DNA of 64,000 nt. Origin: Alphaproteobacteria bacterium (GTDB lineage: Bacteria > Pseudomonadota > Alphaproteobacteria > Rickettsiales > SXRF01). Below are positions 21,968 through 36,944 of the stretch, in pieces. Position 1 is the stretch's first letter; every line of letters starts with the position of its first letter. Made by a program: the position numbers and the translations under genes. The stretch lies in NCBI GenBank assembly GCA_020049775.1, contig JAGVLO010000008.1:83790-147789 (forward strand). Direction: 5' to 3'. The notes under the pieces were generated by a model, which had not been told where the DNA came from, did not search any database, and saw nothing but the letters and a program-made list of their open reading frames with translations.

Positions 21968-22129
21968 GCCCTATGAAATCACTGCTTCAATTCTTTACCC
22001 GCCTGTTTCGCCGCGAAAGTACATGGGACAGCTATGATTATGGCAAGCCCAGCGCGGCGAACGACGATTTTCGTAAAAATAACGAAGTATAGGCTTTACT
22101 GCGCAGTGCTGATTATGTTCAGGCGCGGG

Positions 22130-22261
22130 TGTAGGAGTAATGTATAAGCCTAGCCCTCGTACTTCAGTGTCGTAGAAGTAGATTCTGGTTCTACTTTTGG
22201 CATTGGAATTGGTTAGATTGGAAATAGTTTTGATTGTGAAATTAAAGCGGTTTTTGGTCAT
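22130..22261 (-). pseudogene. tyrosine integrase N-terminal (DUF4102 arm-binding) fragment
   Basis: The first ~43 aa (FTIKTISNL...RIYFYDTEVRGLGLYITPT) match the N-terminus of P4-type integrases. Similarity stops at an 11-bp copy of the tRNA 5' end, and the rest of the 88-aa ORF is unrelated. Confidence 0.5.
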
Positions 22262-22361
22262 AAGCTGGTTCTACTCTGGTTCTACTTTTGGACAAAAAAT
22301 CCTAAGTAAAACCTCCAGCCTTGCCTTCTTAGACCAACCTAACCCTTTGTACTTTAGATAC

Positions 22362-22435
22362 GCGGGTGTAGTTCAATGGTAGAACGGCAGCTTCCCAAGC
22401 TGCATACGAGGGTTCGATTCCCTTCACCCGCTCCA
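22362..22435 (+). tRNA. tRNA-Gly (anticodon CCC), CCA encoded
   Basis: Cloverleaf readable by eye: acceptor GCGGGTG/CACCCGC, D-arm TAGTTCAATGGTAGAAC, anticodon stem GCAGC/GCTGC with loop TTCCCAA, T-arm GAGGGTTCGATTCCCTT, then discriminator T and CCA. Confidence 0.9.
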
Positions 22436-22585
22436 TTAATCAAAGCCATTTTTTGGCTTGGGTTAATGGAATGAGTGGAAAGAACCCGGAAAGAGGGTTC
22501 GTAATTTTTGCAGGAAGCAAAAATTGACGGCGCAGCGCAAGGCGCGAGCCGCCGCTTGACGGCGTGAAGCCAGCAGGCGAACGTC

Positions 22586-22604
22586 ATTCCCTTCACCCGC
22601 TCCA
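22586..22604 (+). repeat. 19-bp direct repeat of the tRNA-Gly 3' end (att-like scar)
   Basis: ATTCCCTTCACCCGCTCCA at 22417-22435 (tRNA 3' end) is repeated exactly at 22586-22604. Confidence 0.65.
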
Positions 22605-22659
22605 CCTACACAAATATATAGTTGCCTAATAATATTCACATTGTATTTTGCTGCACAAG

Positions 22660-33750: not shown

Positions 33751-34063
33751 GGGCGTAATCCTTGTGATTCGTAAATAATGCAGGAGGACTGGTTTAGTGG
33801 TTTTGCGCGAATATTCAAGCCTTTTCCGCCCCAAAACAGCAAAAATGCCGTTTTTCACAGGGTTAAGAACACCCTCTGCCATAGAACTTAAGATATTGAT
33901 TATAAATTATTATGCCTATATTAAATTTTTGTTTCACAAGGTCGCAAGCCTTGTTGCACTTCCAATTTTGCGCTATATTTATAGTGATTTACCTTTCTGC
34001 GGTTATTTCTGTAACCCCAGCAAGGTTACAGACTGCCGAAAGGAAGTCGTTAGGAGGACAGCA

Positions 34064-34363
34064 ATGTCCCTCGAACAGACCAAGGCGCTGTACATCAGCA
34101 TCGAGAACGCCGCGAGCCAGCTGGGGATCGACCTCGGCAAGCTCAAGGCGCAGCTCCAGACGCAGCACATCCACACCTCGCGGAAGAAGTTCTTCGAGGG
34201 CGGTCAGGAGGTGATGCGCTGGGCGATCCTGCGCTCCGACTTCCAGAAGATGGTGGCGGCGCAGCAGGCGGAGAAGTACTCGATGAAGACGGGGTTCGAG
34301 AAGCCCCCCACCCGCCAGACGAAGAACGGCGTCAAGCCGAGCACGAAACTGACGGGCGAGTGA
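34064..34363 (+). CDS. 99-aa excisionase/AlpA-like HTH protein with a basic tail, encoded with foreign (very high GC3) codon usage
   Basis: AGGAGG at 34052-34057, 6 nt before the ATG. 96 of 99 sense codons end in G/C. HTH-like YISIENAASQLGIDLGKLKAQL plus RWAILRSDFQKMV wing-like segment. A terminator follows at 34391-34442. Confidence 0.6.
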   Translation: MSLEQTKALYISIENAASQLGIDLGKLKAQLQTQHIHTSRKKFFEGGQEVMRWAILRSDFQKMVAAQQAEKYSMKTGFEKPPTRQTKNGVKPSTKLTGE

Positions 34364-34390
34364 TGTAACAGTCGCGTCTGAATCGTAAAA

Positions 34391-34442
34391 ACACCTGCCC
34401 AGCGGCGCGCGCAAGCGTAGCCTCTGGGCGGGTGTTTTATTT
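34391..34442 (+). terminator. intrinsic terminator of the 34064..34363 mini-gene
   Basis: 11-bp stem ACACCTGCCCA / TGGGCGGGTGT (one G-U pair) with a GC-rich 23-nt loop, followed by TTTATTT. Confidence 0.5.
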
Positions 34443-34483
34443 AGGGCTTCTTTTTTCATCGCCGTTTACATACACTCTCCGCC

Positions 34484-35266
34484 ATGACCACATCCTACGA
34501 AACATTACTCGTCAGCCAGCCGGAAAAATTCATTACGTTGGTGACGCTCAATCGCCCCGACGCCGCCAATGCGCTGAATAAGCGCATGGGAATGGATTTG
34601 ATGGCCTGTTTTTCCTCGCTGCCTGTTGATTGCCGCGCGGTCATTATCACCGGACAAGGCAAACATTTTTGCGCTGGCGCCGACCTCAAGGAACGCAAAG
34701 GCATGACCGAAGCGCAATGGCACGAACAGCACCATGCGTTTGAAGCAGCGCTCTACGCCATACTCGGATGCTCCGTACCAGTGATTGCCGCCGTAAACGG
34801 TGCAGCCTTCGGCGGCGGACTGGAACTCGCGCTGGCCTGCGATTTTATTTATGCGTCCGACACGGCACGTTTTGCACTCACCGAAACCACACTGGGCATC
34901 ATCCCCGGCATGGGCGGCACACAAAACCTGCCACGCGCCATTGGTATCCGCCGCGCCAAGGAATTACTATTTACCGGAAAAGCACTCAGCGCAGCCGAGG
35001 CCCATGGCTGGGGCATGGTCAATAAATTGTGCAGTGCGGAATCATTGATGACGGATGCCACTGCCTGCGCACGCACTATCTCCACCAACGCGCCACTGGC
35101 GGTCAGAGCCACTAAACAGGCAGCGCAGCAAGGCCTTAACCTGCCCCTGCCAGAGGCCATAAAATGTGAGTTGACGTATTACAATAAACTTCTTACAACC
35201 AACGATAGGTATGAGGGCATTAACGCTTTCAATGAAAAACGAAAACCGACCTTTACCGGAGAATAG
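34484..35266 (+). CDS. enoyl-CoA hydratase/isomerase (crotonase) family protein
   Basis: FCAGADLKE...AAVNGAAFGGGLELALACDF...E..LGIIPG.GGTQ are crotonase signatures. Confidence 0.85.
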   Translation: MTTSYETLLVSQPEKFITLVTLNRPDAANALNKRMGMDLMACFSSLPVDCRAVIITGQGKHFCAGADLKERKGMTEAQWHEQHHAFEAALYAILGCSVPVIAAVNGAAFGGGLELALACDFIYASDTARFALTETTLGIIPGMGGTQNLPRAIGIRRAKELLFTGKALSAAEAHGWGMVNKLCSAESLMTDATACARTISTNAPLAVRATKQAAQQGLNLPLPEAIKCELTYYNKLLTTNDRYEGINAFNEKRKPTFTGE

Positions 35267-36362: not shown

Positions 36363-36944
36363 TTACTGCTGCTCTACCGGCACCGGTACCGGCAGGTGGA
36401 TTTTGCAATCCAGTTTTTCTATTTTCGCAGAACCACTGAAATTAAGCTTCACTTCGCACACCGCTTCATACAAAAAACGTACGCGCATCTGCTTGGCCAC
36501 AAAGCGCGACTCGCCCTCGGCACTGCCCACCGACGCCAGCACAACATCTGCCGACTGCCAGTCGTCACTCATCTTGAAGTCCGAAACACCCACGCCAAAA
36601 TTATATTTCTTCAACGAGTAAAGAATATTGCCGAGATACGAAGTAAATAGGGGCTTTCCGAATTCATGCACCACCGCTGTTTTCTTGGTGAGATACTCCA
36701 CCTTGTCTTCTTCTTCCGGTTGCGCATAGCTGACATCGAGCTTTATGTGTGCATTATCTGCAAAATACGACATCACATTATCGCGTATCTGCAAATAATC
36801 GGCAGTGGCAACAAGGTTGGCGATATCCTGCAACCGCGACTCCATGTTGCGGCGCTGTACACCCGGCGGGTAACCGAAATAAAAATACAGGGCAACCAGC
36901 ACAACGATGCCTGCGAATAATTTAATCCAGAGTGGTTTCATCAA
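36363..36944 (-). CDS. hypothetical N-terminally membrane-anchored protein
   Basis: Single N-terminal TM helix ([19 protein letters not shown]). Start overlaps the gcdH stop by 4 nt, which suggests co-transcription. No family recognised. Confidence 0.5.

Follow-up and report, generated by a model that had tools for sequence, protein, structure and literature searches.

Why should one small gene, set among ordinary genes of a bacterial genome of intermediate G+C content, carry G or C at almost every third codon position? The question is raised by a stretch of 64,000 nucleotides from an alphaproteobacterium (assembly GCA_020049775.1, contig JAGVLO010000008.1, positions 83,790 to 147,789 of the forward strand), which was analysed at its full length and is called the window here. 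Between a TrcR-family gene and an enoyl-CoA hydratase (ECH) gene it contains an open reading frame (ORF) of 99 amino acids on the + strand at 34064..34363, the mini-gene, with G or C as the last base of 96 of its 99 sense codons. The synonymous differences among its relatives show purifying selection that removes A and T from the third positions of the mini-gene frame only, with G and C being freely interchangeable. The reading that we favour, at a probability of about 0.45, is that of a natural, recombining and hypervariable cassette in which the target of wobble selection would be the translated message, and not the DNA or a match to the tRNA pool.

Third codon positions of the mini-gene

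The three codons that depart from the rule are GAA, GGT and AAA. The G+C content at codon positions 1, 2 and 3 (GC1, GC2 and GC3) is 0.545, 0.384 and 0.970, respectively; lysine is encoded by AAG 11 times and by AAA once, and six of the seven glutamate codons are GAG. All other ORFs of at least 120 codons in the window have a GC3 of 0.42-0.68, the window as a whole has 51% GC, and elsewhere in the 64 kb no stretch of 60 codons, whatever its frame, has a GC3 above 0.83. Recoding the protein with host codon usage yields a GC3 of 0.605 ± 0.044, and the actual gene lies about 8 standard deviations above this. The 180 bp upstream of the mini-gene have 37% GC. These counts bear out the preliminary description of this DNA, made from its letters alone, which had reported the 99-amino-acid frame with its 96 G/C-ending codons and 11 of 12 AAG lysine codons, neighbouring genes with free use of A/T-ending codons, an AT-rich upstream region of ~180 bp, and trcR and a crotonase gene as neighbours (matched here as TrcR family and ECH). 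A second copy, a similar periodic stretch, or a silent cassette array or repeats for the mini-gene were not found in the 64-kb window. Border repeats around the cassette were looked for and not found, and integron attC cores were not seen at the cassette, which was inspected by eye only; the neighbourhood agrees with the earlier statement that no integrase or att repeat lies nearby.

A small gene is present in the identical TrcR-ECH slot in six independent assemblies (NCBI, JGI, ENA and Logan data). DNA of the relatives was taken from the matches of a protein search and from DNA adjoining ECH homologues, and the neighbours are the same in all loci (TrcR, pilin, malate synthase, ECH, patatin and acyl-CoA dehydrogenase). 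The genes fall into four allele classes that are 22-43% identical to each other at the protein level: class 1 (99 amino acids) in the window and the locus L081, class 2 (104 amino acids) in L101, L105 and two database members without usable DNA, class 3 (108 amino acids) in L082/83/84, and class 4 (94 amino acids) in L106. The GC3 of the mini-gene in the six assemblies is 0.970, 0.899, 0.962, 0.962, 0.926 and 0.904, in carrier genomes of 50-54% GC where the genes adjoining the mini-gene have a GC3 of 0.46-0.69. No relative has an orthologue with ordinary codon usage, as would be expected if the window's copy were aberrant; the orthologues share the anomaly.

On comparative grounds, the annotated sense frame is the coding frame of the mini-gene, because the Shine-Dalgarno (SD) sequence and the ATG are conserved among the same-slot genes, every indel is a multiple of three, the differences at codon positions 1/2/3 are distributed 8/8/18, and the ratio of nonsynonymous to synonymous divergence (dN/dS) within allele classes is ~0.3.

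The evidence for selection comes from the comparison of synonymous sites. Between the window and L082, the flanking genes are synonymously saturated (dS 1.1-2.4), and the GC3 of the mini-gene is still above 0.9. At four-fold sites with G or C in both sequences, G versus C differences in deep pairs amount to 0.33-0.44 in the mini-gene and 0.24-0.26 in the flanks. At two-fold synonymous sites, where every change swaps G/C and A/T, the corresponding values are 0.06-0.12 and 0.40. Synonymous changes from G/C to A/T are 3-7 times rarer in the mini-gene than in the flanking genes, and NNA codons in four-fold boxes are absent from the mini-genes of the window, L081 and L082; allele 2 has a single GCA. 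Because G-C turnover is at or above the level of the flanks, the sequences must be old and the choice between G and C neutral. A very recent horizontal acquisition, one of the options in the preliminary description, is refuted by this turnover and by the simultaneous suppression of synonymous changes from G/C to A/T.

The other parts of the same haplotype are ordinary or AT-rich in composition. The upstream spacer within the exchanged tract described below changes at close to the neutral rate and has 29-37% GC, the spacer between stop codon and hairpin has a GC content of 0.46-0.60, and ECH codons 2-21, which lie inside the exchanged haplotype, have an ordinary pooled GC3 of 0.53. Since non-coding DNA and ECH codons of the haplotype do not follow the rule, the constraint is specific to the mini-gene frame, and within that frame positions 1+2 are ordinary as well (GC 0.47-0.54). 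As judged from these comparisons, the G/C-wobble composition is old and actively maintained; the argument for selection is carried by the deep comparisons together with the frame specificity. Multi-nucleotide codon differences and serine TCN-AGY switches between the window and L081 were considered as signs of an exotic mutational process. This was rejected, since they are explained by high background divergence (flank dS ~0.85) acting on an unconstrained codon subset.

Exchange of the cassette between lineages

The loci L081 and L105 have closely similar backbones (flank dS 0.06-0.19; 99-100% protein identity in most flanking genes, 95% in ECH) and carry alleles 1 and 2, respectively, which are 22% identical. 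Conversely, L101 and L105 share allele 2 (cassette dS 0.08) at an ECH/patatin dS of 0.67-0.72. Near-identical backbones with strongly divergent alleles, and one allele on diverged backbones, mean that the cassette recombines between lineages. The tract replaced between L081 and L105 comprises ~690 bp (~33859-34546 in window coordinates) and extends from the AT-rich spacer into ECH, as far as about codon 20. The spacer is 56-58% identical between the two, the flanks 96-100%, and the ECH mismatches are concentrated in the first ~60 nt of the gene (window 34484-34546; L081 8422-8484). In the alignment of L081 with L101, the leaders are near-identical and the similarity stops exactly at the SD sequence. 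These alignments show movement of the whole ~690-bp haplotype between lineages by homologous recombination. Its left part is the fast-evolving AT-rich spacer (33859..33950, + strand, 29-37% GC; approximate coordinates, transferred from the L081 alignment). Its right part (34471..34546, + strand) comprises the first ~20 codons of ECH and, 7 nt ahead of their ATG, a TACACT box.

The cassette is confined to one small alphaproteobacterial clade, where it lies in the TrcR-ECH slot. A comparison of this intergenic region among relatives, which the preliminary description had proposed, separates loci with the cassette from loci with an empty slot, in which the TrcR-ECH gap measures 100-200 bp (L097/98, L100 and L102-104, which have the same extended synteny, and the more distant L002 and L003). 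Remnants of a cassette deletion were looked for in the empty sites and not found. In a tree of concatenated TrcR, ECH and patatin, the empty-site loci L097 and L100 are placed inside the carriers (92% bootstrap; carrier monophyly 2%). Since an empty-site lineage is nested within carriers, presence and absence constitute a polymorphism shaped by recombination and possibly also by loss. A history of a single gain followed by strictly vertical descent was dropped after the tree and the incongruence between alleles and backbones had been obtained.

Two further observations concern the range of alleles. In L099 (GC 59%), the 66 nt upstream of ECH at the contig end (1-66) start with CGGGCGGTTTTCC, which resembles a terminator tail; this lineage may carry a further allele that is cut by the contig end. 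Among allele-2 variants, P0128 and P0129 differ by four residues (SAKP), which one of them lacks in a basic tail with repeated KP-S/T units, and this difference suggests slippage-type length variation.

The hypervariability, the allele exchange between lineages and the conserved structured leader described in the next section had all escaped the preliminary description.

The expression unit and competing explanations

The cassette is a genuine, natural and self-contained expression unit with a promoter, a structured leader, an SD sequence, an ORF and a 3' hairpin. The sigma-70-type promoter, read from the sequence, consists of TTGTTG (-35), a 17-nt spacer and TATATT (-10) at 33951..33979 (+ strand), with a predicted transcription start at ~33984-33987. 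A promoter at 33951-33981 had been described before; a strict consensus scan did not call it, and its conservation as TTGnnn-17-TATATT in the orthologous loci L081, L082, L101 and L106 supports it.

No other part of the locus is conserved as strongly as the leader of ~85 nt, which differs by 1 mismatch where the rest of the haplotype is replaced and is present only once in the window. It includes an invariant 19-mer, ATAGTGATTTACCTTTCTG (33981-33999, + strand; sequence conservation), and a 5'-terminal rod-like stem-loop at 33986..34048 (+ strand) with P1, P2 and the apical hairpin CTGTAACC...GGTTACAG, which was recognised by folding and covariation. Five leader variants independently fold into the same rod (-26 to -33 kcal/mol), which runs from 2 nt behind the predicted 5' end to ...AGUC, with shuffle z-scores of -5.5, -6.0 and -2.9. 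Compensatory changes are found in P1 and P2; among them are GCAGGC:GCUUGC versus GUGGGC:GCUCAC, a bulged A versus an A-U pair, and U-A versus U.G. The inverted repeat noticed earlier in the leader, TCTGTAACC-N7-GGTTACAGA, was recovered by sequence search at 34008-34032 (+ strand); its spacing varies by 1-2 nt among alleles. The leader has no match in Rfam, and the lone Rfam match, STnc370, lies over the 3' hairpin at chance level (20.9 bits versus a gathering threshold of 54, E = 6). A function as an anti-SD switch was considered and is no more than an idea: in the minimum-free-energy folds the 5' segment pairs within the rod and not with the SD sequence. A scan of metagenome contigs for the 19-mer gave 12 matches, none of them orthologous, which by a rough estimate is about the number expected by chance. 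Two groups of unrelated AT-rich contigs (L086, L088 and L090; L085 and L094) contain the exact ATAGTGATTTACCTTTCTG and share downstream sequence within each group.

The SD sequence AGGAGG is located, as described, 6 nt before the ATG (34052..34057, + strand; read from the sequence). Folding predicts partial pairing of this sequence with codons 2-3, its unpaired probability being 0.10-0.39 across alleles. Downstream of the stop codon, a long hairpin with 19-nt arms (34388-34406 and 34420-34438) and a CGC-GCAA-GCG tip precedes a U-tract (34388..34442, + strand). In the window the hairpin (34388-34438) is directly followed by TTTTATTT, in agreement with the stem-loop and T-run terminator of the preliminary description; a strict terminator scan missed it owing to its loop definition. 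Every allele has a long 3' hairpin. In classes 1-3 its energy is -30 to -40 kcal/mol and its tip is invariant, the lower stems being unrelated in sequence (covariation); allele 4 has a different tip. A G+C-rich hairpin followed by a U-tract, the pattern of an intrinsic terminator, is found in the window and in allele 3 and not in allele 2, whose hairpin (L101 572-699, L105 5316-5442) keeps the GCAA tip and has no U-tract. In strains with allele 2, transcription may therefore read through into ECH, and the role of the hairpin may go beyond termination.

The predicted folding energy of the mRNA is -123 kcal/mol, compared with -80 kcal/mol for versions recoded to host usage. Runs of at least four A/T do not occur in the coding sequence (about 22 expected), nor do motifs of the type RNWUU (5-6 expected), which is the RNase E consensus.

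Across alleles, the product has 94-108 amino acids, an isoelectric point (pI) of 9.9-10.3, 11-13 lysines and a hydrophilic character (grand average of hydropathy, GRAVY, -0.3 to -0.7), and few residues are invariant. It has no match among the sequence profiles of Pfam, PHROGs, NCBIfam, PADLOC and PDB; for the PADLOC defence families, three allele classes gave no match at E ≤ 1. A word-indexed search of 5.8 billion clusters and an exhaustive HMMER search of 1.84 billion representatives found only the same-slot members of the clade. No relatives came to light among phages and plasmids (tblastn) or in viral contigs scanned with a pattern. Two proteins returned by the protein search (P0004 and P0005) were discarded as repeat-protein noise. 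AlphaFold models are all-helical, without strands, and of low confidence (pLDDT 58.5 and 46.9), and a Foldseek search with the first of them gave no relative (best PDB match, E = 1.2). Most likely, the product is a small nucleic-acid-binding protein with a helical N-terminal part and a basic tail. The diversity of the alleles suggests a role in conflict or recognition under diversifying or frequency-dependent selection. The neighbouring gene product TrcR is, according to PMC12864828 with reference to Delaby et al. 2021, a factor associated with RNA polymerase in Caulobacter; evidence for a functional link between TrcR and the mini-gene was not found.

How might selection on the message produce the wobble rule? 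G or C at each third base would exclude A/U runs longer than two bases. It would also remove NNA/NNU decoding, and with it all dependence on U34, Q34 or I34 wobble, and would strengthen the predicted mRNA structure by ~40 kcal/mol. In combination with a 5' stem-loop 2 nt from the end and a very stable 3' hairpin, this could yield a message that persists when A/U-rich host messages fail, for example under attack by A/U-preferring or codon-dependent ribonucleases or upon loss of wobble-base tRNA modifications.

Several points weigh against this picture. Few sites enter the deep comparisons (16-19 per class), and the low dS within classes reflects in part recent transfer and not constraint. The spacer between the stop codon and the hairpin contains A/U (GAAUCGUAAAAAC in the window), is probably single-stranded and is not G/C-enriched. 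Folding of the coding sequence compared with synonymous shuffles gives a weak and inconsistent signal (z = -2.6, -2.1 and -0.5), and selection for a specific fold of this part of the mRNA was rejected for the same reason. The proposed nucleic-acid binding is drawn from charge, composition and sub-threshold matches of the helix-turn-helix (HTH) type, and the proposed conflict or recognition role from hypervariability, no known defence family having been matched. Finally, the sequence searches are limited in sensitivity, and distant relatives elsewhere may have been missed.

A more specific version must be considered doubtful. Here the mini-gene would be a variable "identity" or conflict cassette under frequency-dependent selection. 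Its message would be decoded purely by Watson-Crick G34/C34 pairing, whatever the state of the wobble-base modifications, and would escape A/U-directed or codon-dependent nucleases. The protein could then still be made when phage attack, toxin activation or starvation brings down general translation or the stability of mRNA, and both the leader rod and the hairpin with its GNRA tip would belong to this device for protection or control.

Translational selection for very high expression, with optimal codons at the extreme end of normal codon adaptation, is the first alternative to be weighed against selection on the message. It would fit the strong SD sequence, the 5' stem-loop and the strong terminator, and the implied strength of selection resembles that on highly expressed genes. 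Host core genes mildly favour C-ending codons among two-fold NNY codons, and the tolerated T-ending codons GCT, GGT and CGT are of the type that is typically optimal in many bacteria. However, the mini-gene uses AAG in 11 of 12 and GAG in 6 of 7 cases against a host core preference for AAA and GAA, and it contains the host-rare codons GGG and CGG. The host frequencies are 0.62 for AAA, 0.75 for GAA, 0.07 for GGG and 0.05 for CGG, and the share of GAG is 0.10-0.25 in rpoD, prfC, pepA and trcR (rpoD 0.14). These four genes, which are probably better expressed, served for the host comparison in a window without genes of the ribosomal-protein class. There is also no single favoured codon per amino acid, the preferred G- or C-ending synonym differing by allele (GCG dominates in one, GCC in another). 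Because the host prefers AAA and GAA and rarely uses GGG and CGG, and because the choice between G- and C-ending synonyms varies by allele, the G/C wobble is, by codon counts, not an adaptation to the host tRNA pool. Finally, highly expressed proteins evolve slowly, and this one changes 5-10 times faster than its neighbours: its dN is 0.089 and 0.545, compared with 0.016-0.06 and 0.07-0.24 in most flanking genes, and only one of them, hyp192, is as fast-evolving. We therefore consider this explanation unlikely.

The second alternative concerns the product, which had been interpreted as an orphan DNA binder of the excisionase (Xis)/AlpA winged-helix type and could act through the inverted repeat in the leader. 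This finds some support in the N-terminal LYISIE.AA.QLG, which resembles helix-turn-helix openings, in sub-threshold HTH-type matches of residues 10-38 (RWP-RK at E = 0.013, HTH_Mga, NUMOD-like), in the basic character of the protein and in the conservation of the repeat. Against it, HTH_17, AlpA and MerR (PF12728, PF05930) are not listed for any of the six proteins even at E ≤ 10, the PDB profile search is empty, and the predicted models are all-helical and of low confidence. The supposed recognition helix carries large insertions, with a 9-residue proline-containing one in one allele, and the tryptophan of the "RW" motif is lost in allele 4. The repeat shifts its spacing by 1-2 nt and behaves as an RNA helix in a larger covarying rod, and there is no integrase or att site nearby. 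Such a binder is thus improbable. Of the preliminary suggestion of an orphan Xis-like regulator under unusual constraints, "orphan" and "unusual constraints" have stood, and the winged HTH is not supported, the predicted models being too weak to exclude such a fold.

GC-biased gene conversion, in which biased heteroduplex repair at a recombination hotspot would push weakly selected sites towards G/C, has the attraction that the locus demonstrably recombines between lineages; biased conversion is known to raise the GC3 of bacterial genes that recombine. It should enrich G/C at all weakly constrained sites of the recombining tract. However, the spacer (29-37% GC), ECH codons 2-21 (GC3 0.53) and the stop-to-hairpin spacer (GC 0.46-0.60) all escape it, and positions 1+2 of the coding sequence are at host levels in spite of a highly divergent protein. 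The data already point to no excess of changes from A/T to G/C outside the third positions of the ORF, which makes this process distinctly unlikely as the cause.

Foreign origin is very unlikely; here the alleles would have evolved in a high-GC organism, phage or plasmid that has not been seen, repeated import would have brought them into the slot, and the G/C wobble would be inherited, not maintained in situ. Its supporting points are that the codon usage of the mini-gene resembles that of high-GC alphaproteobacteria, that the alleles do move horizontally, and that a single-sequence search missed allele 2 although it was in the database, so that search sensitivity is limited. Still, neither allele 1 nor a profile of alleles 1 + 3 found a homologue outside the clade among ~15 billion proteins, and searches of viral contigs with a profile of alleles 1-3 and of phages and plasmids with each allele gave nothing. 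Homologous import would require donors with the same AT-rich leader and ECH flank, that is, members of the clade with 50-59% GC. The amino-acid composition is host-like (GC1 0.55-0.66, GC2 0.38-0.42, lysine far above arginine), and synonymous changes from G/C to A/T are suppressed within allele classes, too. An unameliorated transfer is expected to be atypical over the whole insert, and here only codon position 3 deviates; drift towards host composition at the neutral rate is not seen, GC3 being 0.90-0.97 across the four allele classes.

Dual coding, with G/C wobble kept so that the antisense or the -1 sense frame can encode a second product, is exceedingly improbable. Both frames are open across the entire coding sequence in the window and in L082, and the in-register antisense "shadow" ORF of 156 amino acids noticed earlier is present at 33989..34459 (- strand). 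It is open because TTA, CTA and TCA codons are absent from the mini-gene, and this requires the avoidance of three codons only, not of every codon that ends in A/T. The antisense overlap could never encode Met, Lys, Asn, Ile, Thr, Ser, Phe, Tyr, Cys or Trp, and the variation by codon position matches the sense frame. The antisense frame has no conserved start and runs across the 3' hairpin, and the -1 frame is broken in L081; coding in either was rejected on these grounds, and the shadow ORF is not regarded as a gene.

An artefact (assembly chimera, contamination, or the engineered or codon-optimised insertion that had also been suggested), for which nothing speaks beyond the oddity of the mini-gene, has next to no probability and is refuted by the comparative data: six independent assemblies, drawn from four sources, have the same-slot gene, its alleles are diverged, synteny is conserved, the homologous flanks are continuous and the regulatory elements covary.

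Known systems and the surrounding genes

The population genetics of the locus is that of replacement-type flexible islets and other allelic-replacement loci (comQXP, agr, O-antigen, pilin), with which it shares a fixed slot between conserved genes, deeply divergent alleles, homologous exchange incongruent with the backbone and absence from some relatives. It differs from them in being a single orphan ORF of ~100 codons with no covarying partner gene and an almost invariant leader, and in that every allele obeys the G/C-wobble rule, which we did not find reported for such loci in the literature. In its statistics, as a GC3 outlier between housekeeping genes with a patchy distribution, it resembles horizontally acquired codon-usage outliers. 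Unlike these, it is atypical at position 3 only, has an AT-rich non-coding flank and no donor homologues that could be found, and keeps its anomaly across saturated divergence instead of losing it. Strong selection on synonymous sites, a strong ribosome-binding site and a compact unit are also features of highly expressed genes; the contrary lysine and glutamate preference, the interchangeable G/C synonyms and the very fast evolution of the protein set the mini-gene apart.

With binders of the excisionase/AlpA/HTH_17 kind, the product shares a size of ~100 amino acids, a basic character, the stand-alone position and an N-terminal motif loosely like a helix-turn-helix, whereas a profile match, a predicted wing and an integrase/att partner are missing and the recognition helix has insertions. 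The architecture of the transcript recalls ompA-type 5' stabilisers and hok-type mRNAs, which are stabilised, structured messages with a 5'-terminal stem-loop and a 3' hairpin: here, too, there is a stem-loop within 2-3 nt of the predicted 5' end, a stable 3' hairpin and a high degree of structure. Those messages do not have G/C at every wobble position, and the stability is in our case a prediction from sequence. Moreover, hok-type products are small hydrophobic toxins, unlike the hydrophilic, basic product of the mini-gene (GRAVY -0.3 to -0.7, pI ~10). The antigenic-variation locus vls of Borrelia has GC-rich cassettes in an AT-rich genome and thus likewise consists of variable coding cassettes that depart strongly from genome composition. 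In contrast to vls, there is no silent array or repeats in the 64-kb window, the alleles remain stable for moderate spans of evolution, and their product looks cytoplasmic and not like a surface lipoprotein. Unlike the targets of diversity-generating retroelements, the mini-gene has no template repeat in the 64 kb, and the differences between its alleles span all bases and include indels.

The locus combines islet-like population genetics, the statistics of a transfer outlier and the architecture of a stabilised mRNA, and it fails the defining tests of each kind. We rate the cassette as not assignable to a known kind of gene. A precedent for a single-gene G/C-wobble rule maintained by selection in a bacterium of intermediate GC was not found in the literature, of which our coverage is incomplete. 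Synonymous sites are usually seen as near-neutral or tuned to tRNAs; here, 90-97% of the wobble positions are held at G/C, against host preference and through near-complete turnover of the protein and transfer between genomes. What else synonymous sites are selected for becomes directly testable at one locus of ~100 wobble bases. The case also bears on the detection of transfer by codon usage, as a compositional outlier is not necessarily foreign DNA. The cassette, an orphan that is hypervariable and recombines and whose covarying leader RNA is uncatalogued, may represent a new system of recognition or conflict in uncultured or little-studied alphaproteobacteria.

Some observations were made on the surrounding genes. 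Upstream of trcR, the motif TTTAGTGGTTTTGCGCGAATATTCAAGCCTTTT (window 33792-33825) is kept even in the distant, cassette-free loci L001, L002, L097, L100, L102 and L103; it is probably the trcR promoter or 5' untranslated region, and the insertion site has its left edge here. The window contains a single tRNA gene, a tRNA-Gly(CCC) at 22362-22435, which reads GGG. Small ORFs beside it (21995-22605, including 21995-22258) had looked integrase-like by eye, which is unsupported, as they have no Pfam match. A gene for 192 amino acids at 36363-36944 (- strand), also without a Pfam match, is 40% identical between the window and L082 at the protein level, its neighbours being 84-90% identical, and it is absent from L001.

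On the other side of the cassette, ECH evolves faster across the clade (70% identity) than its neighbours (83-90%). It has no SD sequence, and the TACACT box adjoins the 3' side of the mini-gene hairpin (window 34471-34486). The arrangement TACACT-N7-ATG is conserved in the window, L081, L082, L101 and L097, and the box may be a promoter from which ECH is transcribed as a leaderless mRNA. L002 has a TATTTT box 6 nt before the ECH ATG.

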